Shown in pieces: positions 1 through 9,141 of a DNA stretch of 64,000 nt. The stretch is from a phage. Where the stretch lies: assembly GCA_020381345.1 (NCBI GenBank), contig GCA_020381345.1_3636.1. One strand, 5' to 3'. Each line of letters starts with the position of its first letter. Position 1 is the first letter of the stretch. Position numbers and translations under genes: made by a program. A model generated the notes under the pieces. It was not told the DNA's origin. It saw only the letters and a list, made by a program, of their open reading frames with translations, and did no database searches.

Positions 1-109
1 AAAAAAAAAAATTTCTTCCGTGGTGTTGCAATCCGGTCCGGAATGTGGATAATAACAATCAACGGGGAGCTAATCCCCACCACCACAAAAACCAGAAAGG
101 AGAAACAAA

Positions 110-310
110 ATGAGCAACAATATCCGCGTTATTAACTTCAAAAAAGAAGAAAAAATTGCCGTGCTGATTGACGGTCAAGAAATCTTCAAGGGCGACTATG
201 AAGATCATCAAACGGCGATTAGTATCACTCGCGTGATTGGTTACCATAATTTTTACCCCCAAGGCGCTGAGGCAGCGGTTAAACGAATCAAAGAGATTGT
301 AGGCCTGTAA
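110..310 (+). CDS. hypothetical early protein (66 aa)
   Basis: ORF with RBS AAAGGAGA upstream of ATG; first of a same-strand array of small ORFs. Confidence 0.55.
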   Translation: MSNNIRVINFKKEEKIAVLIDGQEIFKGDYEDHQTAISITRVIGYHNFYPQGAEAAVKRIKEIVGL

Positions 311-403
311 AATTTATTTTTAGATGGCCTTGACTCCAGGGCCATCAATAAAGTAAATTTAAACCCTGTTAAAATACCACGCAGTTAACAAGGAGTGATA
401 GAC

Positions 404-703
404 ATGTTTATCCAGGCTAATAATCTTTATTTCTTTGATGGTCAGATCGTAGATGGTGTGGAAGTGGAGATCACCGGGTGCCCTGGCGGTCAGGCTATGA
501 CTTTTCGGAATAATGCCTTTGATGATTCTCATATCGTTATGAGAATGGAAGTTACGAAGCTGGATGACAAGAAAACACTTATTGACTATTCTGTGAAAGA
601 TCATCCAGACTACCACATGATCCATGGTGATTTGTGCACTGTTGACCGTGACAAGGTGGGCGGCATCGTGATCGCTATTGTGAACGATGTTTTCTCAAAC
701 TAA
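404..703 (+). CDS. hypothetical protein (99 aa)
   Basis: Track ORF 395..703 begins at GTG overlapping the RBS AGGAG (391-395); ATG at 404 is the likelier start. Confidence 0.55.
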   Translation: MFIQANNLYFFDGQIVDGVEVEITGCPGGQAMTFRNNAFDDSHIVMRMEVTKLDDKKTLIDYSVKDHPDYHMIHGDLCTVDRDKVGGIVIAIVNDVFSN

Positions 704-720
704 CTTCAGCAGGTGATTTT

Positions 721-1071
721 ATGAAAGTCAAACTATATTACCTTAATGAGCTTAACCCCCTTGCCCAGGTCCGCGCCCTAGCTAATACCTTGATTTGTGA
801 GAAATCTGTATATTGTGTTGAGCTTAACGCCATGCGTGAACGTCTCAAAGGTGGTTACTTTAACATCCATGCCGCCATCAACGGCCTGAATATGGAATTT
901 ATCCGTTTACGTAACAGCCGCCGGAATCTGGCAAGAATGGAACAAGATCCGGCCCACCTTCGTAAGCTGGTTATTGAAAATCATCTGATGTTTAATGCCG
1001 ATGGTGATTATTACCATTTTCACCGCAGACGCTGGTACCGTGGCGGCAATACAGACAAGAATGCAAAATAA
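721..1071 (+). CDS. hypothetical protein (116 aa)
   Basis: ORF followed by a strong hairpin terminator at 1110-1140. Confidence 0.55.
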   Translation: MKVKLYYLNELNPLAQVRALANTLICEKSVYCVELNAMRERLKGGYFNIHAAINGLNMEFIRLRNSRRNLARMEQDPAHLRKLVIENHLMFNADGDYYHFHRRRWYRGGNTDKNAK

Positions 1072-1109
1072 GGCCCCTAGCAGGGCCTGCAGCAATATAA
1101 TTACATAAA

Positions 1110-1140
1110 GGCCATGCGGTTGCATGGCCTTTATTATTTT
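1110..1140 (+). terminator. rho-independent terminator
   Basis: GGCCATGC-GGTT-GCATGGCC stem-loop followed by TTTATTATTTT. Confidence 0.7.
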
Positions 1141-1188
1141 GGCGTTACAACGGCATACGAGGCGCTTAAAAAATTTTTAAAGAAGTAC

Positions 1189-1216
1189 TTGCATCATTCC
1201 CGACAATATGGATAAT
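1189..1216 (+). promoter_or_regulatory. sigma70-like promoter
   Basis: TTGCAT, 16-nt spacer, GATAAT; upstream of ORF 1274. Confidence 0.45.
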
Positions 1217-1273
1217 AAGAGTTGTCGAGGGGGAGGCCCCCAATCATTGACCAGATAGATAGGAGTTAAAATC

Positions 1274-1558
1274 ATGGCTATTGTTACCGCTGGCGATGTA
1301 GTAGAAATGGAAGCAAAATACTTAAAAGCGGGTATGCATATCCTACGGAATGATCAAGAGTTATTATTAACGATGGTTGACTATAATCCCGGCCAGGATT
1401 ATCCAAGCATCGACTACTTTTTTGAGTATGTTGATGAAGAGTTAAAAGAGGATGAGGCCTATTGCGGTGAGTTCTGCAACTTCTTTTGTCCTGATGAGGT
1501 TGTAAAGGTTATTTATCAACCTGGCGTAGCTTTCCCGCTGCACGCTATCAATAAATAA
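1274..1558 (+). CDS. hypothetical protein (94 aa)
   Basis: ORF with RBS TAGGAG upstream. Confidence 0.55.
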   Translation: MAIVTAGDVVEMEAKYLKAGMHILRNDQELLLTMVDYNPGQDYPSIDYFFEYVDEELKEDEAYCGEFCNFFCPDEVVKVIYQPGVAFPLHAINK

Positions 1559-1613
1559 ACCTGGCGGGGCCGAAAAGGCCCCCAATTATGAAAATAAAGA
1601 GAGGTAAATCATC

Positions 1614-1847
1614 ATGATGGAACAAATTAAACGCGCTGAGGCTATTAATGGCAATGTGATCTATTTTGTCAGTAAAAACGAAAAAGGCGTACCATATGCG
1701 GCGGTAATAGTACAACCTGACGGCGATTATTGGTTTACTGTGTACGGCGCTTATTCTTTTGGGCGTCCAGTGCATGATAAAATTTTGAAAGTAGCGAACC
1801 CTACCGGGAAGAATATCACAGCAGAAAAATTTTTTGAAAATAGTTGA
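1614..1847 (+). CDS. hypothetical protein (77 aa)
   Basis: ORF with RBS AGAGAGGTAAA upstream; preceded by hairpin GGGGCCGAAAAGGCCCC. Confidence 0.55.
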   Translation: MMEQIKRAEAINGNVIYFVSKNEKGVPYAAVIVQPDGDYWFTVYGAYSFGRPVHDKILKVANPTGKNITAEKFFENS

Positions 1848-1871
1848 CATGACCGTATAAAACTGTAATAT
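1844..1871 (+). promoter_or_regulatory. sigma70-like promoter
   Basis: TTGACA, 16-nt spacer, TAATAT. Confidence 0.5.
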
Positions 1872-1922
1872 ATAAATCAAAGGGAGCAACAAGCCCCACC
1901 AACCACAAAGAGGATAAAAATC

Positions 1923-2102
1923 ATGGCTATTATTGCAAAGACCGAGATCGTAGGCTTAGATTCTATTCTCCTCGCATATGAGGAAGCTATAGAAATGTAT
2001 GTGGTTTCCTATGGTGAGTATATCCGTGAATATGAATCTATTGATCTAGCTTTTGAATGTTATATTCGCCAGGTTAATAAAGCGTACGATGATTATCGTT
2101 AA
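1923..2102 (+). CDS. hypothetical small protein (59 aa), not in ORF track
   Basis: Hand-translated ATG..TAA ORF just under the track length cutoff; RBS AAGAGGATAAAAATC-ATG with the same CA-rich leader as its neighbours. Confidence 0.45.
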   Translation: MAIIAKTEIVGLDSILLAYEEAIEMYVVSYGEYIREYESIDLAFECYIRQVNKAYDDYR

Positions 2103-2193
2103 AATAGTTTGACAACAAACAACCATCTAACAAAGCATAATACATAAGGTGGTAGAATGATCCGCCACCCGGAACAAAGAAGAGGTAAACACC

Positions 2194-2439
2194 ATGAAAA
2201 GCAATAAAGGTTATAACGGTTACAAAAACAAAACTCATTGGAATGTAAGCCTTTGGATTAATAACGATGAGTCATTGTACCGGTTGGCCCAAGGATTTAT
2301 TAACGCTAATGCTAATCGTAATGATGCGGCGCGGGATATGATGCTTTTTCTGGAGCTAACCGGACAAGATAAGACCCCGGACGGCTTCAAGTACAGCACT
2401 ACGGCGATCCGTGCCGCGATGGTTGGAATGAAACACTAA
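2194..2439 (+). CDS. hypothetical protein (81 aa)
   Basis: ORF with RBS AAGAGGTAAACACC-ATG. Confidence 0.55.
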   Translation: MKSNKGYNGYKNKTHWNVSLWINNDESLYRLAQGFINANANRNDAARDMMLFLELTGQDKTPDGFKYSTTAIRAAMVGMKH

Positions 2440-2516
2440 AAGCACATAGCCGCCTTACCCTGGGGCTGTGGTATCGGCCCCATGAATAAGGTTACTAACA
2501 GAAGAGAATAAACACT

Positions 2517-2621
2517 ATGAAACAGAAATTAATCGATGCAGTGATCTTGGTTATTGCCCTGGGTATTGGCCTGATTGCAACCATGTCTAATATGATCTTG
2601 TCTTCCAACGGTATCGGGTGA
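2517..2621 (+). CDS. small hydrophobic peptide (34 aa), not in ORF track
   Basis: Hand-translated MKQKLIDAVILVIALGIGLIATMSNMILSSNGIG; RBS AGAAGAGAATAAACACT-ATG; single predicted TM helix. Confidence 0.4.
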   Translation: MKQKLIDAVILVIALGIGLIATMSNMILSSNGIG

Positions 2622-2630
2622 GGTTGGCAA

Positions 2631-2846
2631 ATGATCACTAACAAAACAGGCAAAACAGAATTTTTACGCAACTTACAGATCGGCAAGCCTGAGATCTGGT
2701 ACTGCACTAAAACACCGCGTGACGAAATGAAAGACTTCACCGCCACGCTGCAACGGGTAAAGATATCTATCACGCAGAAAAAGGCCTTACTAGTGGTGGA
2801 AGGGGAGATCCCCCAAACCGTTGTTATAGTTGAGCGTACAGCATAG
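2631..2846 (+). CDS. hypothetical protein (71 aa)
   Basis: ORF with RBS GAGGT upstream. Confidence 0.5.
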   Translation: MITNKTGKTEFLRNLQIGKPEIWYCTKTPRDEMKDFTATLQRVKISITQKKALLVVEGEIPQTVVIVERTA

Positions 2847-2937
2847 TTTAATTTATACCGATACCCGAAAATTAACCAACAAAGCATAAACAGGCGGTTA
2901 CCGCCGCCTTAAACGTAGCAGAAAGAGGATAGACACA

Positions 2938-3228
2938 ATGAAAAAGATGATCGCAGTGGTTGCCCTGGTTGTTGGACTTAGTGCGCCTGCAATGGCTAAT
3001 GAGCTGGCAAAAGAGGTTAATCTAACGGATATTCATGCCGTCAATCGAATCGGGGTTACTTATCGCTTATGCCTTGCCACTAAAACTTTTAATGACGGTA
3101 CAACAGAGTACTACGGATTTGAGGGTATCCGGTGCGGTGAACTTGCTCGCGACCTTAAGGAAGATCCAGACCTGGAAGATTTGCCGATGACGGTAAACGG
3201 TAAAGCTTACGTAAACCGCCAACAATAA
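2938..3228 (+). CDS. hypothetical secreted protein (96 aa)
   Basis: N-terminal signal-peptide-like MKKMIAVVALVVGLSAPAMA; RBS AAAGAGGATAGACACA-ATG. Confidence 0.6.
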   Translation: MKKMIAVVALVVGLSAPAMANELAKEVNLTDIHAVNRIGVTYRLCLATKTFNDGTTEYYGFEGIRCGELARDLKEDPDLEDLPMTVNGKAYVNRQQ

Positions 3229-3244
3229 GTAAGGGAGATGTAAA

Positions 3245-3436
3245 ATGAATACTGAACAAGTTAGAAAGGTATTGGCGGTACTGCGTTATCATAATCATAG
3301 AAAGGTCATAGACGATCCTGATTATGTAGATTCAAGCCTGGAAGAAGACACGCTACAAGCTATCAGCCATATGCAAGAATTGCTTAAGCGCATGACAGAG
3401 AAAAACCGACCGGACTACATAGGGGGTAAAATATGA
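3245..3436 (+). CDS. hypothetical protein (63 aa)
   Basis: ORF with RBS AAGGGAG upstream. Confidence 0.5.
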   Translation: MNTEQVRKVLAVLRYHNHRKVIDDPDYVDSSLEEDTLQAISHMQELLKRMTEKNRPDYIGGKI

Positions 3437-3744
3437 TCGCTATTACGCCAACCGTTTTAGATTGGTATCGGCAACGCATAGCTCCTCCGCTGGCTATCTT
3501 CAAAGATGCGGAAGCAAAACAACGCCGGATCTCAATACATGAGATCATCAACCTTAACGCTGGAGGCACACCATACCGCCCAGGGCCTGGCCGTGAGATG
3601 GACAATACGTTAGCGATCCTGAAGATACGCCGTAAACGGTCCTCCCTTACGCTGGACTCCTTACACACAATGCAGTCTCCGTTCCAGGTGACCGGGAAAC
3701 GGATCGCCAGGTCCTGGACAAAGGCCAATGATCGGACCGTATAA
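3433..3744 (+). CDS. hypothetical protein (103 aa)
   Basis: ATG overlaps upstream stop as ATGA (translational coupling); RBS GGGGGTAAAAT. Confidence 0.5.
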   Translation: MIAITPTVLDWYRQRIAPPLAIFKDAEAKQRRISIHEIINLNAGGTPYRPGPGREMDNTLAILKIRRKRSSLTLDSLHTMQSPFQVTGKRIARSWTKANDRTV

Positions 3745-3775
3745 ATAAAAAGTGTTTTGGTACTGATTTTGGGGG

Positions 3776-3804
3776 TTGACTTGTTCGGCCCCTTTTGCTA
3801 TTCT
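3776..3804 (+). promoter_or_regulatory. sigma70-like promoter
   Basis: TTGACT, 17-nt spacer, TATTCT. Confidence 0.4.
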
Positions 3805-3880
3805 TATTAAACGGGCGGCACTTGGGAACAGGGGGAGACAATCACCGGACCTGCCTGTCATATAGGAACTATAAAAACCG

Positions 3881-3909
3881 TTGACATCTGCCAGGGGGTG
3901 GGGTAACAT
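3881..3909 (+). promoter_or_regulatory. sigma70-like promoter
   Basis: TTGACA, 17-nt spacer, TAACAT; upstream of ORF 3963. Confidence 0.45.
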
Positions 3910-3962
3910 TATCTTGAAGGGGCAAAAGTGCCCACACAACAACCAGAAGAGAGGAAAACATC

Positions 3963-4235
3963 ATGTCAAGCTGGATTAATCAAGAAGTCGAATCACGTTT
4001 TAATGCTATTTGGGATCTCATCGAAAAAGAGGACGGAACATCAAGCCCTTACCTCAATAATCTTGAATTCCATTTTGTGGAAGCGATGAACGCAGAACAT
4101 GATCACGAAGGTGGCGCGGATGAGTTCGCTAAAGGTTATGGCTTTAATAATGCCAACGAAATGATCGAGGCGGTTGTACTCCAGGCTGAGGAAGATTATC
4201 AATTAAAAACGCTTGAATTCTGCCGCCGCAAGTAA
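3963..4235 (+). CDS. hypothetical acidic protein (90 aa)
   Basis: ORF with RBS AGAGAGGAAAACATC-ATG. Confidence 0.55.
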   Translation: MSSWINQEVESRFNAIWDLIEKEDGTSSPYLNNLEFHFVEAMNAEHDHEGGADEFAKGYGFNNANEMIEAVVLQAEEDYQLKTLEFCRRK

Positions 4236-4296
4236 TAAGATAATGACACGGGCCAAAAGGCCCACCAAACCAGAACCACACAAAGAGGTAAACATC

Positions 4297-4560
4297 ATGA
4301 AACGTCTTGATCAGCTTAAACTAGTTCAGTACATGGCCTACAAAGTTCTTGAAGTCCAAAAAGGTAGCAAAAAAGAGGTTTGCGAGAAAGCATATAAGAT
4401 CTTTACCCGTAAAAAAGATGATTGGATGTTACGCCAGACTAAAAAAGCCGATATCTTGGGGTACCTGGAAGAAGAGATCCGACTTGAAGAGCAAGAAGAG
4501 ATCCGTCGCAGTGAGGCAGATTATCAGGCAGCTTGGGAAAACTGGATGAGTAACAAATAA
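4297..4560 (+). CDS. hypothetical protein (87 aa)
   Basis: Track ORF 4213..4560 starts at an upstream alternative codon; ATG at 4297 follows RBS AAAGAGGTAAACATC. Confidence 0.55.
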   Translation: MKRLDQLKLVQYMAYKVLEVQKGSKKEVCEKAYKIFTRKKDDWMLRQTKKADILGYLEEEIRLEEQEEIRRSEADYQAAWENWMSNK

Positions 4561-4627
4561 TACAACAAGTTACATGGTCAGGGGGCAATAAAGCCCCTTG
4601 ATTGCATAAAAATTATGCCATCCTTGG

Positions 4628-4656
4628 TTGACATGGATCGGCAGTTTTGCTATATT
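4628..4656 (+). promoter_or_regulatory. sigma70-like promoter
   Basis: TTGACA, 17-nt spacer, TATATT; upstream of ORF 4706. Confidence 0.5.
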
Positions 4657-4705
4657 CTTTTTTGAAGGGAAGTTGTAAGAAAATTAACTAAGAGGTAAAA
4701 ACACC

Positions 4706-5125
4706 ATGAGCATTAAATCTAATAATCCGGCATATAGCTTTGATAACGCTTTTTGTCACGGTCCGGCGGCGAAAGGATTCGAAATCGATGGTAAACTAAT
4801 TATTGTCAATGTTGACGGGGAAGAGGTTGCAGTATATCCGGTGGCAGACGTAAAAAGCCGTTTACAATGCCGCATTGATGTTACCGCCTATCAGCTTGAT
4901 CCGGTCCGCATAGTTGCCCTGGTCCTGGAAGAAGAAATTAAAGCCATGCACCATAGCAACAGGTTTATTGGTGACGCACAGGATAATATGAAGGTATGCC
5001 GCCATAAAGTTAATGAAGTGCTTAAAGAATATGGCTTTAAAGATCTGATGATCAAACGTGAGGAAAAATTCCGCTACCGTAACGACCTGGCAAATCGAAT
5101 CTATGAAATATACGAATCATTATAA
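4706..5125 (+). CDS. hypothetical protein (139 aa)
   Basis: ORF with RBS AAGAGGTAAAAACACC-ATG; last plus-strand gene before the non-coding region. Confidence 0.55.
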   Translation: MSIKSNNPAYSFDNAFCHGPAAKGFEIDGKLIIVNVDGEEVAVYPVADVKSRLQCRIDVTAYQLDPVRIVALVLEEEIKAMHHSNRFIGDAQDNMKVCRHKVNEVLKEYGFKDLMIKREEKFRYRNDLANRIYEIYESL

Positions 5126-5143
5126 TTTCTTAACTAAACTATC

Positions 5144-5172
5144 AGGGGCTTTAAAAGGTCCCTTTCTTTTTG
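5144..5172 (+). terminator. putative rho-independent terminator
   Basis: Imperfect stem AGGGGC/GTCCCT followed by TTCTTTTTG. Confidence 0.45.
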
Positions 5173-5776
5173 TCTGTATTTCTCCTACCACAAACGGCCC
5201 CACCTGGCAAGTGGAATAATTGACTAGCCATCAATCCCACACACTGTACAAATATACATGTAAAATAGCTATTGCATAATCTTTCATTGTGTGGTAGCAG
5301 GGCCATTTTTACACGTTTTTCCTTCCAAAATTGCACGTAATGCAGCTATTGCACAAAATTTAACCTGATGCATATCTTCAGTGTCTTGTCAACAACTAAA
5401 AATCTTTATAAGTCATACACTTACACAACCACAAAAGCGTGTTCTACGTGAAAAATCGGGTATAACTATAGCCACTAAATTCCAGAATTCACGTAGCGTC
5501 ACCATTCTATAGTCTGCTAAGCATTTATTCCAACCATAGAATAACGGAATAGTCAATACCTGCATAAAATAATTATTCGTTTAAACTGCATAACATAAAT
5601 CAGCCAGGGTGTCAACATTTTTCGTAAACAGTCCGAAATTGTCACGGTAAGTTATCATAAACAGAGAAATCTTTAGTCGTCTAATGTTTACTGTACATTA
5701 CTATACTGACTGGAATCATTAGATGACTAAGAGAAAGATAAGAAACAATTAACAGTCTAATTATATTAACGATAAC

Positions 5777-6051
5777 AATAACAGCGGTTAAAGTCATGGC
5801 GCGACGGAGTCGCGACATAATAACACCGAGTAACCCTCACCCCCGTGAGCGTTGCGAATGTTATTATGCCATGACTAAATCATTTCAACACGTAACTATA
5901 GGCATAACAACATTCCCTCGGTGTTATTATGTCGCTAGTTATTATATAACTGTTAACAATAACGCCTCGGGAATAGTTCTGCCTGCACGATGTTTATAAC
6001 AGCAAGTTATGATCAACATTTCACAGATTATAATAACAGCGGTTAAAGTCA
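5777..6051. repeat. 20-bp direct repeat AATAACAGCGGTTAAAGTCA, two copies
   Basis: Identical 20-mers at 5777-5796 and 6032-6051. Confidence 0.7.
5812..5935. repeat. perfect 19-bp inverted repeat flanking an 86-bp loop
   Basis: GCGACATAATAACACCGAG (5812-5830) is the exact reverse complement of CTCGGTGTTATTATGTCGC (5917-5935). Confidence 0.7.
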
Positions 6052-6709
6052 GGCGTAGAAACAGTGGAAGTGTAAACAGTCAATCATGTAAATGATAAGT
6101 ATGTGAACAGTTATCCATGTAAACTATTAGACATGCAAACAATCAGGTGTGCAAAAGTGTCAAGGGTGTCACCAGTATGTCAGACAAGTTTTCCTCCTCT
6201 TTGTCAAGTGCTGCATGAAAAATTTACAAACTGGTATGGTAGCATTTTTGCGGCCCTGTTTACATTCAGTAATGTATGTATAATCCTTGTTGTGTGGGCG
6301 TTTAGACGTCTAGACGGTTGGAAGTCCACAGGTCAATATCTAATCTATCGGCTGCTAACTATATCCCACACAAATAGTAAGAAATATAATTGTTATGCGT
6401 GTAAACAGTAACTCATGTTATCAATCCCTGTATGGATCGCCAGTGGTGCGCATAATGGGTATTATGTTAAATTGCCAGTAATGATAACTATTCTCACAAT
6501 GATAGGTATTCTCATTCCCCCACACAAGATAGGTTGCAAATGTTGTGCCACTGTGTGAACGGCCTCACCTATTAATTTGCCTCACTGCCTCGATATTTGA
6601 GAATTATTATAAGAATGAGAAGTATTCCCATTTCGTCCGCCTGGCAGCACTCCTGTAGGTCAGGTCAAAATCGGGAGAGAACTGGACCTGTTCAGATATT
6701 TCTGGCTGG

Positions 6710-7894
6710 CTCTTCAGGTCTGTGTGGGAAAAGCCGACCCCTCCGGCGGCGGGGAGGTGGTCAATTAAAAAATTTACGGGGTATATGAAGCGCTCTTCAG
6801 GTAAGGCATGTATTATGGGATGAAACCCTCTTCAGGCAATGATATTTGTGGGTGTGATATTTGCTGGAAAGCCAGATATGACGGGACTCCCGGCGGGGCA
6901 GGGGTAGTACAGACAGGGAAAATATGGGGATGTAGTTGGGTGAATTGATCGGTCAGGTAGGGTATGGAATATGTTACAGGTATGTTAAATATGGAGGGTG
7001 AATATCTGTAGGATTTGTGTGTAAAATCAAAGACTTAAGTGGTGTTGTGGTATTTTCTATAAATAATTCAAGTTTAATAGGTAATATTTGTCCCTATCCA
7101 CTTTGTGTGGTAAACAAATTCAGATGAGATTGGTTTACAAGTGTATACATAATATACAAATTAAAGATACAAGAAACCCCCCTCCCCCTTCGGCTACCAT
7201 TCACCTTTTCCTCTGACTGGTACTTAAACACTTATTCAGACTCTTCAGGTTATCACCCATATATCATATGGCAGTGACTGGTGTCCTCCGGCCCCTCTTT
7301 CGTCACCCGTCCGCTTCGCCATGCTAATGCCATAGCCAAAGGTTCGGTTGTTCACCCTGTTCACTCAGGTGTATCTCCATACCCCTTCAAACCGAAGAGA
7401 ACAGAAAACCCGAATTACTCGGTAAAAGAAAAGAGAAGAACTTAATTTTATCAGGATAGGCAAGAATGTCAAGGCATGACTGCTCACTAAACAAGCAAAC
7501 AGTCATGTGTGGGAGGTAAGTGATTGTGGTTGTAGGAAATTTAGTTGAAAGATGTGTTATAGGTGCTTCCAGCACTTTAGCCGGGCAGCTAATTGTGTGT
7601 CAGTCCAGCGGTTCATCCTCTACTTCACTGAAATCAATGTTCATGGTCTCTTCCCAACCATCGATCTCAGCACAAGAGTGGAGTTCTTTAGGGTTTACTC
7701 CCAAAGCCTCAGCAACAGAGTCTATATTTAACACCTCTGGCAGGTATGATTCATCGAATTCAAGGTAAATCAGGCCACGAGTATTGTCAGCTCCACCAAA
7801 TAGTTCTATCTTCATGAAATCTCCTTCGGAAAATGAGTGTGAACAGGATTATACGTCCCAATGCGCAGGAATTATGCACGTTTGCCTCTTCAGG
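6710..7894 (+). repeat. five same-strand copies of CTCTTCAGG
   Basis: Exact 9-mer at 6710, 6793, 6828, 7241 and 7886; copies at 6710, 6828 and 7886 are followed by TGTGGG and the one at 6793 by TGGG; two are followed by CCGGCGG(C)GGG tracts. Confidence 0.6.
7600..7815 (-). CDS. hypothetical acidic protein (71 aa)
   Basis: ORF track; strongly acidic composition. Confidence 0.45.
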   Translation of the reverse strand: MKIELFGGADNTRGLIYLEFDESYLPEVLNIDSVAEALGVNPKELHSCAEIDGWEETMNIDFSEVEDEPLD

Positions 7895-7933
7895 CCATGC
7901 TTTAGCATGAGGAACCTGTGTGGGCTCGGTGCT

Positions 7934-8146
7934 TCATAGTCTACCACCCCTGAACTCTTCGTGCTCAGGCATAATAGAGAACCAGATATCTACGATGTCT
8001 TCCCACGTTAGGTCATTAGCCTCAGGATCTACCTGGAGCGAAGATGGAGAATCTTCAGAATCGAAGTTTTCCTCTTTCACTGGCTCAGCCAAGGGACATA
8101 TAGTCACTCCTTTTGATGTCTCTTCAGATGCATGTGTGTTGATCAT
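7934..8146 (-). CDS. hypothetical acidic protein (70 aa)
   Basis: C-terminal part of track ORF 7934..8347; ATG at 8144-8146 overlaps the upstream peptide stop as ATGA. Confidence 0.45.
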   Translation of the reverse strand: MINTHASEETSKGVTICPLAEPVKEENFDSEDSPSSLQVDPEANDLTWEDIVDIWFSIMPEHEEFRGGRL

Positions 8147-8244
8147 GTTCCACCCGTGAGTATTCCGGCAACAGCCGCTATGGACGTAATGATCATCAGG
8201 ATCACCACTAAAACTTCGGACAATGTTTTCATTGTGTATTCCAT
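8143..8244 (-). CDS. small hydrophobic peptide (33 aa), not in ORF track
   Basis: Hand-translated MEYTMKTLSEVLVVILMIITSIAAVAGILTGGT; RBS GGAG 4 nt upstream. Confidence 0.4.
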   Translation of the reverse strand: MEYTMKTLSEVLVVILMIITSIAAVAGILTGGT

Positions 8245-8506
8245 ATTCTCCAAATGATGTGTGGATATTATCACTGGAGCGGTAATGTGTCAACAGAAAC
8301 GCCGCGAGGGTTTGGTTAAAATCCGAGCGTATGGTGATTTGGGTCAAAACGGACGTGCGTTCTCGCTACGCTCGAAAGAGAGATTTGTTTGTAGGCCGTC
8401 CTTAAACGCTCTATAATGAGATTATCTGCCCAAGGTATGCAATCGTGCACCAGATAAAGAAAAGGACGCCACAGAGCGTCCTAGGTGTCTTAAATTTGAT
8501 ATTTTG

Positions 8507-8818
8507 CTATACCCACGAGGGCTTATCAAGATTGGAGTAGCTGAAAGGTGTCAAAAGGTGACTGTCAAAATCTCTCAAACTATCCAAATCTTTTTCCTCG
8601 TCCTGACACCATCTGTGCCTACATTTATTGTTGTAGTGCATGGAATGCATAGCGTTCTGCAACTTAACAGGTACAAGTGATTCAGGAGTAGATAGTATTG
8701 TAGGGTATGCCAGAACCACCTCAAACAGTGGAAACACATCGAAACTAAAGTCTACCTCTGCAGAGGTTGATGGCATATAGGAGTATTTAGCCGCCTTTGT
8801 AGACATAATCCACCTCAC
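8507..8818 (-). CDS. hypothetical protein (103 aa)
   Basis: ORF track. Confidence 0.5.
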   Translation of the reverse strand: MRWIMSTKAAKYSYMPSTSAEVDFSFDVFPLFEVVLAYPTILSTPESLVPVKLQNAMHSMHYNNKCRHRWCQDEEKDLDSLRDFDSHLLTPFSYSNLDKPSWV

Positions 8819-9141
8819 ACAGGTTTGATAATACCTTCACCTAATAACTCTTCATATCTAATCTTATCCGGATCCCACTCCTGGATAATTTCGAAGACAA
8901 TATCCAACCCAGGAATAATCACTTCTCCAGTGTCAAGTTTGGCAAGAACAAAACCAGAAGGCTGAATGGTTTCCCAGTTGCGACGATTGGAATAGAAGAC
9001 CTCGAAAATATCACCGACCTTGATCTGTTGATCAAGATGTTCAAGATTCTCTTTCATATAGACGCAGCGGATTTTTCGTGCAGGCCATAGACCACCTGCA
9101 TCACGTTCATTTAGCTCTTTCACAGTGATTGGCATTCTCAT
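8815..9141 (-). CDS. hypothetical protein (about 108 aa)
   Basis: Track ORF 8815..9192 would read through an intergenic hairpin; the internal ATG at 9141 has RBS AAGGA. Confidence 0.45.
   Translation of the reverse strand: MRMPITVKELNERDAGGLWPARKIRCVYMKENLEHLDQQIKVGDIFEVFYSNRRNWETIQPSGFVLAKLDTGEVIIPGLDIVFEIIQEWDPDKIRYEELLGEGIIKPV

Follow-up and report, generated by a model that had tools for sequence, protein, structure and literature searches.

Small early genes and their upstream cassettes

The window analyzed here is a 64,000-nt stretch of phage DNA (contig GCA_020381345.1_3636.1 of GenBank assembly GCA_020381345.1), and our subject is a family of short upstream regions within its first 5.2 kb that combine, in the fullest copies, a σ70-type promoter, a GC-rich hairpin, a leader and a Shine–Dalgarno (SD) sequence, and that we refer to as cassettes. 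The window belongs to an rV5-like myovirus (Vequintavirus): bases 1–5200 share 97.6% identity with Escherichia phages LL12 and Murica, and nearly all of the 302 phage records matching this segment are Vequintavirus. Bases 1–5125 constitute the terminal part of the small-open reading frame (ORF) early cluster of the phage, with 15 small plus-strand ORFs of 34–139 amino acids filling 110–5125. Every early ORF tested falls into a PHROG family of unknown function, one of them being DUF7249. We name ORFs by their first nucleotide, and the features described below lie on the plus strand.

An earlier note on this DNA held that most of the early ORFs are preceded by a short GC hairpin without a U tract and then by a leader of the form ‘CCACCA..ACAAAGAGG’, the two forming a repeated processing or stability element coupled to a translational enhancer. 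The hairpin strings that it quoted are present (GGGGCCGAAAAGGCCCC at 1566–1582 and GGGCCAAAAGGCCC at 4250–4263), and the hairpin half of the pattern stands: GC hairpins lacking a U tract precede nine of the 15 plus-strand ORFs (64–78, 1229–1241, 1566–1582, 1882–1897, 2148–2169, 2462–2481, 2892–2909, 3920–3933 and 4250–4263). The pairing of hairpin and C/A leader is confined to 4/15, because a leader of the described form, U-free and nearly G-free, follows only the hairpins of the genes starting at 110, 1923, 3963 and 4297. The leaders of ORFs 1274, 1614, 2517 and 2938 are mixed or A/T-rich; no element stands before ORFs 721, 2631, 3245 and 3433, which are translationally coupled; ORF 4706 has a promoter and no hairpin; and ORF 404 has a stem-loop that overlaps a −35 hexamer. 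Two features had escaped the earlier note, namely the σ70-type promoters in front of the hairpins and the use of leaders and hairpins as crossover points in gene gain and loss among relatives.

Several components of the cassette are present in excess of chance. The 17-nt translation initiation region (TIR) motif AAGAGGWAAAMAYCATG, with at most two mismatches, occurs three times against 0.18 expected, always in the early region. Strict matches to promoter plus hairpin plus SD–ATG number four on the plus strand of the 64-kb window, all in 1–5200, and runs of [AC] of at least 12 nt number six in 1–5200 against ~1.2 expected, those in the four C/A leaders measuring 12–20 nt. Folds of single leaders have z-scores of −1.8 to −2.8.

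The most complete copies precede ORFs 110, 1923, 3963 and 4297. At ORF 110, a promoter (TTGCAA-16-GATAAT, 26–53) with an A/T-rich tract upstream, kept in 11 relatives, is followed 10 nt after its −10 hexamer by the hairpin GGGGA-GCTAA-TCCCC (64–78, no U tract), and the region 79–109 then carries the leader ACCACCACAAAAACCAGA (0 U, 1 G), the SD AAGGAG (97–102) and the spacer AAACAAA before ATG 110. ORF 1923 has the promoter TTGACA-16-TAATAT (1844–1871), which is the predicted P174 of rV5, and the hairpin GGGAGC-AACAA-GCCCC (1882–1897); within 1882–1922 the hairpin is followed by the leader ACCAACCACA, the SD AAGAGG and the spacer ATAAAAATC. ORF 3963 follows TTGACA-17-TAACAT (3881–3909, the predicted rV5 P168) and, 10 nt past the −10 hexamer, GGGCA-AAAG-TGCCC (3920–3933), with the leader ACACAACAACCAGA (0 U), the SD AGAGAGG and the spacer AAAACATC completing the cassette within 3920–3962. 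The cassette of ORF 4297 has a weaker promoter, TTGAAT-17-TAAGAT (4213–4241), that overlaps the end of ORF 3963–4235, the hairpin GGGCC-AAAA-GGCCC (4250–4263; fold z = −2.8) and, within 4250–4296, the leader ACCAAACCAGAACCACACA (0 U), the SD AAGAGG and the spacer TAAACATC.

Other copies are less regular. ORF 1274 has the promoter TTGCAT-16-GATAAT (1189–1216) and, 12 nt after the −10 hexamer, GGGGG-AGG-CCCCC (1229–1241), with a leader that is not C/A-rich. ORF 2194 follows a doubtful promoter (2109–2141), absent from rV5 Table S4, in which TTGACA lies 21 nt from CATAAT or 18 nt from AAGCAT; its hairpin GGTGGT..GCCACC (2148–2169) has a 10-nt loop and a stem that relatives reshape and retain, and it is followed within 2148–2193 by the leader CGGAACAAAG, the SD AAGAGG and the spacer TAAACACC. 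Three hairpins have no promoter: GGGGCC-GAAAA-GGCCCC (1566–1582, no U tract) between ORF 1274–1558 and ORF 1614–1847; GGGGCUG-UGGUAU-CGGCCCC (2462–2481), which includes a G·U pair, after ORF 2194–2439; and AGGCGG-TTACCG-CCGCCT (2892–2909) before ORF 2938. At ORF 404 the −35 hexamer TTGACT of promoter 330–359 lies in the loop enclosed by the stem-loop ATGGCC/GGCCAT (324–345) and is followed by TAAATT (354–359); paralogous copies of this element (324–359) stand upstream of Murica genes 174 and 173. ORF 4706 has an extended −10 promoter, TTGACA-17-TATATT (4628–4656, the predicted rV5 P164), and a hairpin-free leader that runs to 4705 and ends in AAGAGGTAAAAACACC before ATG 4706. The 20 nt upstream of the promoters at 26–53, 330–359, 1189–1216, 1844–1871, 3881–3909, 4213–4241 and 4628–4656 are 65–85% A+T. 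The rV5 genome paper lists P174, P168 and P164 and leaves the hairpins and leaders unmentioned (PMC3606486).

Three of these loci carry further peculiarities. The stem at 1882–1897 begins GGGAGC in the window as against GGGGGC, or a shortened GGGG stem, in the relatives that differ here; the resulting A·C mismatch, apparently a recent degeneration, weakens it from −10.5 to −6.8 kcal/mol. Segments 2846–2937 and 2095–2193 share TAGTTT...AACAAAGCATAA followed by a GGCGG-type hairpin, and the region upstream of ORF 2938, which has no −35 hexamer, looks like a decayed paralog of that upstream of ORF 2194; the ORF 2938 ortholog of phage YN3 has the intact CATAAT version. ORF 3963 is preceded by two tandem σ70-like promoters ~105 nt apart (3776–3909; TTGACT-17-TATTCT and TTGACA-17-TAACAT), the first of which is overlapped by a terminator-like hairpin (3771–3804). 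The 75-nt ORF-less gap between them (3810–3885) folds no better than its shuffles.

Hairpin position, conservation and termination

The hairpins stand at a narrow distance from their promoters. In the window, 8–12 nt separate the −10 hexamer from the hairpin, and in most cassettes 46–58 nt separate it from the ATG. Over the whole early unit of Murica and two Phapecoctavirus loci, 18 of 23 promoter–hairpin pairs have a gap of 8–13 nt, with a mode of 10. σ70 RNA polymerase initiates ~7 nt past the −10 hexamer; with a gap of 8–12 nt the hairpin would therefore start near +2 to +6 of the primary RNA, and one of 8–13 nt would leave 1–6 nt unpaired at the predicted 5′ end. The stabilizer hairpins studied by the Belasco laboratory reportedly begin ~0–4 unpaired nt from the primary 5′ end. 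We infer from this spacing that five or six of the hairpins would lie where primary transcripts are predicted to begin.

This geometry bears on the processing role put forward in the earlier note. Processing is unnecessary for the five or six of nine hairpins with a σ70-type promoter ending 8–12 nt upstream, because the promoters would place them at a primary 5′ end, and it is possible only for the promoter-less hairpins at 1566–1582, 2462–2481 and 2892–2909, which could either be processed or protect the 3′ end of the upstream cistron. A more general version would make the hairpins RNA processing sites or 3′ exonuclease barriers in a polycistronic early RNA. The hairpins that lack a promoter and lie between cistrons, at ORFs 1614, 2517 and 2938, fit this version, and intercistronic stem-loops such as repetitive extragenic palindromic (REP) elements stabilize upstream mRNA segments. 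Most copies, however, lie just after promoters, where the primary 5′ end suffices, and no known RNA family matches the region (Rfam at permissive thresholds on 1–9000). Typical RNase III substrates, such as those of the T7 early region, are long irregular duplexes of ~20 bp; stems of 5–8 bp are much shorter, and we rejected RNase III sites on this ground. We consider a processing or barrier function improbable.

The stems are better conserved than loops and flanks. Among the distinct ortholog variants from 11 relatives, 3.2% of cells are changed in stems, 16.0% in loops and 8–10% in flanks (Fisher p = 1.6e-9 for stem versus loop and 3.7e-6 for stem versus flank, values that are optimistic because the variants are phylogenetically related and the stem-versus-loop test overstates their independence). 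The six distinct variants of the 64–78 hairpin contain no stem change and 11 loop changes, which yield five different loops, and one ortholog has the longer stem GGGGAG/CUCCCC. Several stems include G·U pairs, which only the plus-strand RNA could form. Between paralogous cassettes the stem sequences differ and the shape stays the same; the loops seen include GCTAA, AGG, GAAAA, AACAA, AAAG and AAAA.

A hairpin of this kind in front of a gene could also be an attenuator or terminator that damps read-through from upstream, each ORF depending mainly on its own promoter. This was proposed for the promoter-early stem-loop (PeSL) cassettes of the T4-like phages RB49, phi1, PST and nt-1 (PMC2839356; PMC4122927). 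Three hairpins in the window lend it some support, since they follow stop codons and have no promoter (1566–1582, 2462–2481 and 2892–2909). So does the wider record: in a scan of IMG/VR for GGCGGGAA(N2-6)TTCCCGCC, 55 instances among the matches listed (120 loci) stand in terminator contexts with a U tract directly downstream. The same matches include no promoter–hairpin–SD cassette; by itself, then, the hairpin sequence does not identify one. What follows the hairpin speaks against a terminator. A U tract is found after 0/9 of the hairpins, whereas all predicted terminators of the phage have one, and the U depletion immediately after the hairpins runs counter to a terminator's requirements. 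In a terminator scan requiring at least 5 T within 8 nt after the stem, none of the nine is among the plus-strand terminator-like sites, their tails being A/C-rich. Position speaks against attenuation as well, because five or six hairpins lie downstream of a predicted start and would end their own transcript too. Finally, separate intrinsic terminators with U tracts precede some cassettes (the rV5 t177 at 1105–1140, which closes the preceding unit upstream of the 1189 promoter; a second, t164, lies at 5144–5172), which suggests that the hairpins are not there to terminate. We hold attenuation to be unlikely, though it may apply to the three promoter-less hairpins. Four candidate minus-strand terminators flagged over these hairpins or a nearby hairpin at 1071–1088 were rejected because the T content after the stem is inconsistent (1–6 of 8); the scan flagged them because, read on the minus strand, the hairpin leads into the AT-rich −10 region.

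The variable loops speak to another possibility, that the hairpins are sites for a specific phage or host protein: an antiterminator of the N/boxB kind, a translational repressor, or a recombinase or operator factor acting on DNA. The loop of 1566–1582 is GAAAA, as is that of lambda nutR boxB, and hairpins of the GGCGGGAA..TTCCCGCC type recur in several phage families. The PeSL authors, too, speculated about a GGGG...CCCC-binding recombination protein (PMC2839356). Yet loops and inner stem pairs vary between copies and between orthologs, and there is therefore no conserved recognition surface; the hairpins also resemble the ordinary terminator stems of unrelated viruses. Antitermination of the lambda nut type was rejected, with no boxA-like string in 1–5300 and loops that are not conserved. 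A dedicated protein site appears very improbable indeed.

Leaders, crossovers and a proposed role

The segment between hairpin and start codon has its own signature. AGAGG or AGGAG with a mostly A-rich spacer of 7–10 nt is found in nine of the 11 ORFs that have their own upstream region (the SD of ORF 2517 is AGAGA and that of ORF 1614 AGAGAGG), and the TIR consensus is AAAGGG.AAA.A.CATGA. For comparisons of the cluster with the rest of the genome, the Murica annotation served as a stand-in for gene calls; in it, 75% of the small-ORF cluster genes (178–151; median gene 268 nt) are preceded by a separate intergenic region measuring 40 nt or more. The A+C fraction of leaders is 0.63 in the cluster versus 0.46–0.50 in the upstream half of the early unit and in middle and late genes. 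Between −32 and −9, cluster leaders contain 2.95 U versus 7.07 in other phage genes (p = 5e-7) and, per 24 nt, 1.24 ACA versus 0.51 (p = 0.001), a 2.4-fold enrichment. Middle-gene promoters have leaders of 25–36 nt and no GC hairpin, and upstream of middle or late genes we found no cassette of the early type.

The leaders are predicted to be unpaired, which would place a G/U-poor tract with single-stranded ACA directly before the SD; long C/A runs are limited to four window leaders. The stability element coupled to a translational enhancer envisaged by the earlier note is a reasonable reading of hairpin plus leader, because the stems appear to be under purifying selection relative to loops and flanks and because the leaders are U-poor and ACA-rich, like known enhancers. 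A more specific idea, that the C/A leader keeps the SD unpaired, was rejected: random leaders of genome composition give SD..AUG an ensemble unpaired probability that is just as high.

The leaders also contain possible targets of host factors. The leader of ORF 3963 contains ACACAACAAC (3934–3943), which is perfectly complementary over 10 nt to the R1 seed region of the Escherichia coli small RNA GcvB (nt 77–86), and host GcvB repression of ORF 3963 could in principle occur. It is the only leader with such a complement, which at a background of 0.7% per 53-nt window is marginal after 11 leaders, and whole-small RNA duplex energies with GcvB are no better than for shuffled leaders (z of 0 to +2). 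The host toxin MazF cuts at ACA (PMC3997798), and the ACA-rich, single-stranded leaders of ORFs 110, 1923, 3963 and 4297 would suit it as substrates; such cleavage could expose the phage to an abortive-infection system.

The cassettes are also places where genomes of close relatives part. Mapping by blastn against 12 relatives placed indel junctions at regulatory repeats: 2208/2500, 4273–4300, 4599/5140, 1849, 2155/2167 and 3793. Loss of ORF 2194 is a crossover between two AGAAGAG..AAACA..ATGAAA leaders, and phiWec191, typing phage 5, JeffSchatz and ECP32 have an additional gene that lies between two copies of a 28-nt leader/SD/ATG (window 4273–4300). Loss of ORF 4706 (4706–5125) is a hairpin-to-hairpin crossover of GGGGC-AATAAA-GCCCC (4581–4597, no U tract), the left partner, with 5144–5163 in the t164 terminator, the right partner, and leaves a chimeric hairpin. 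Of the remaining junctions, one interrupts a −35 hexamer (1849), one separates a −10 hexamer from its hairpin (2155/2167) and one falls just past a hairpin (3793, a recurrent breakpoint). Intragenomic repeats of 17–24 nt among the leaders confirm their shared homology.

The same layout extends beyond Vequintavirus. Promoter, ~10 nt, GC hairpin, SD and ATG precede small ORFs also in Phapecoctavirus (three loci), in phi92 and in the jumbo Asteriusvirus BF17. A near-identical string, CACGTAGGGCGGCAATGGTGCCGCC, is repeated after the −10 hexamer in Phapecoctavirus, and BF17 (383 kb) has three almost identical promoter-plus-hairpin copies within 1.4 kb. Single early ORFs occur alone in Phapecoctavirus, phi92 and BF17, with match edges a few nucleotides from the ATG. 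ORF 2194–2439 (81 amino acids, DUF7249, PHROG 871) has ~85% nucleotide identity in the 350–380-kb jumbo coliphages BF17, UB, Turkey3 and fEgEco12; because this match begins no more than 4 nt from the ATG, the gene has been exchanged between unrelated phage families. One deletion has another signature: at typing phage 5 locus 2205–2225 (window 717/1061), ORF 721–1071 has been removed by a crossover on ATG-level microhomology only, with no cassette repeat, leaving a 4-codon remnant ORF, ATGATGCAAAATAA, at the junction.

Recombination alone might account for the pattern, if the leaders were alike as a by-product of one ancestral intergenic region having repeatedly recombined and been duplicated, and if the hairpins were what is left of terminators that lost their U tracts. 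The junctions show that leaders recombine, the region before ORF 2938 looks like a decayed copy of that before ORF 2194, and the accessibility test for the C/A leaders was negative. Such an origin is nonetheless hard to reconcile with stems ~five times more conserved than loops, with a −10-to-hairpin spacing tightly constrained across three phage subfamilies, and with paralogous cassettes that keep their structure despite differing hairpin sequences. The absence of any dedicated function is, in our judgment, very improbable.

We favor instead, as the probable explanation, that these are autonomous early expression cassettes of promoter, stem-loop and SD, similar to PeSLs, that also serve as recombination substrates. 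The cassette is a real, lineage-typical regulatory element, and the proposed mechanism is plausible. Its anatomy, its restriction to this cluster, the conservation of its stems and the junctions are observed in the sequences, whereas the transcript 5′ ends, the stabilization and the enhancement are predictions. Host σ70 RNA polymerase would start ~7 nt past the −10 hexamer, so that, judging from the spacing, the RNA would begin 2–5 nt before a GC hairpin of 5–8 bp. This hairpin would cap the 5′ end and hinder the decay by RppH and RNase E that depends on that end, as do stabilizers of the ompA type. The U-poor, C/A-rich tract that follows would prevent the hairpin from acting as an intrinsic terminator and, RNase E being said to prefer U-containing single-stranded sites, would offer that enzyme few of them. 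ACA motifs beside the SD resemble the kind shown to enhance translation, and a purine SD (AAGAGG or AGGAG), an A-rich spacer of 7–10 nt and an AUG often followed by AAA may together give strong initiation. At ORFs 1614, 2517 and 2938, a promoter-less hairpin–leader unit would operate between cistrons. At the DNA level, 15–30 bp of similarity among cassettes (leader/SD/ATG, hairpins and promoters) could supply the homology for deleting, inserting and swapping small ORFs.

Besides the relatedness of the ortholog variants, several points weigh against this explanation. With one PeSL stem-loop in front of lacZ, expression fell about as far as with the rrnB T1 terminator, and the authors read the stem-loop as a terminator (PMC2839356), which favors attenuation. 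Our search of the accessible literature found no transcription start maps for Vequintavirinae or Stephanstirmvirinae, nor mapped transcript 5′ ends for rV5-like phages, and the position of the hairpins in the RNA derives from promoter spacing only. Two promoters (2109–2141 and 4213–4241) are weak or doubtful, and three hairpins have none. Early-cluster promoters differ only modestly from others in what follows them (minimum free energy, p = 0.017; at least 4 GC pairs, p = 0.05). Lastly, 41–62% of random leaders match or beat the four C/A leaders in predicted SD accessibility.

A bolder extension, which we regard as tentative and rather unlikely, is that the cassettes are the joints of an integrase-free cassette-exchange system across unrelated families of virulent coliphages (Vequintavirinae, Stephanstirmvirinae, the jumbo Asteriusvirus and T4-like phages), in which small early ORFs move by microhomologies in hairpin, leader and SD, possibly via mini-circles. 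The 5′ hairpin and U-free ACA leader would then guarantee immediate, RNase-resistant expression in a new genomic context. If the expression-cassette explanation that we favor is true, the idea that PeSLs drive accessory early genes and act as shuffling joints would extend to rV5-like, phAPEC8/phi92-like and jumbo coliphages, with a different role for the stem-loop, that of an mRNA 5′-end cap instead of a terminator. The cassettes could then serve as compact natural modules of strong promoter and 5′ untranslated region (UTR) for expression in E. coli, allow the early transcription units of therapeutic rV5-like phages to be annotated better, and help account for the gain and loss of early genes of unknown function, likely involved in host takeover or anti-defense.

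Downstream of the cluster, the early ORFs give way to an ORF-free segment (5150–8500) and then to minus-strand genes, leaving ~3.3 kb without a credible ORF between these genes and the converging plus-strand early unit. This segment is the counterpart of the ‘non-coding’ box on the rV5 genome map, where the corresponding stretch ends the transcription unit ‘genes 10-1-238-164’, running into a box of ~3 kb (PMC3606486). It matches no Rfam family even at permissive thresholds, and no tRNA or tmRNA was found in a scan of 1–9000.

Comparison with known systems

Among described systems, the PeSL, defined and assayed for promoter activity by Arbiol et al. 2010 (PMC2839356), comes nearest; its definition also covers terminator activity of the stem-loop and excised mini-circles. 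Both systems have a strong σ70-like promoter preceded by an A/T-rich tract, a polyG/polyC stem-loop in or adjoining the promoter, and an SD and start codon at the 3′ end; both exist in many copies among small ORFs of unknown function; and in both, the indels and replacements that distinguish close relatives have their crossovers within the cassettes, hairpin included. All sequence-level features that define PeSLs are found in the window cluster, and the stem-loop at 324–345 recalls the PeSL subclass with a stem-loop over the −35 hexamer. The differences lie in residence, position and sequence. PeSLs belong to T4-like phages, whereas the present cassettes are found in Vequintavirinae, with similar ones in Stephanstirmvirinae and Asteriusvirus. 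The stem-loop here is almost always 8–13 nt downstream of the −10 hexamer and so inside the predicted transcript, whereas the RB49 and phi1 PeSL stem-loops are mostly between the hexamers or over the −10. Our hairpins have no U tract and are followed by a U-poor, ACA-rich leader that is not part of the PeSL description. Among the inspected titles of the best-ranked papers that mention PeSLs in the searchable literature, none concerns rV5-like phages. Because the genome is that of a Vequintavirus and the likeness is one of architecture, we class the cassettes as PeSL-like, not as homologous members of the family.

For the RNA, the nearest parallels are the 5′-terminal stem-loop stabilizers of the ompA and papA 5′ UTRs (Emory, Bouvet and Belasco 1992; Bouvet and Belasco 1992; both as cited in PMC3997798). 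There, as in our predicted transcripts, a short stable hairpin lies within a few nucleotides of the mRNA 5′ end, and a single-stranded leader and then a ribosome-binding site come after it. The phage hairpins are shorter and more GC-rich, and they form a repeated family instead of serving the UTR of a single gene. The leaders compare with the C/A-rich, ACA-motif enhancers defined experimentally upstream of the SD in enterobacterial mRNAs that are GcvB targets (PMC3879156): a G/U-poor tract with one to three ACA stands directly before the SD, as in CACAAAGAGG and ACACAACAACCAGAAGAGAGG. Long C/A runs, in contrast, are present in only about one-third of the phage cassettes. Finally, the phage's own Rho-independent terminators (t164, t177 and others in rV5 Table S4) share the stem type GGGGCC/GGCCCC with loops of 3–6 nt; the cassettes differ from them in that the hairpin follows a promoter and not a gene, and in that its tail is A/C-rich and not U-rich.

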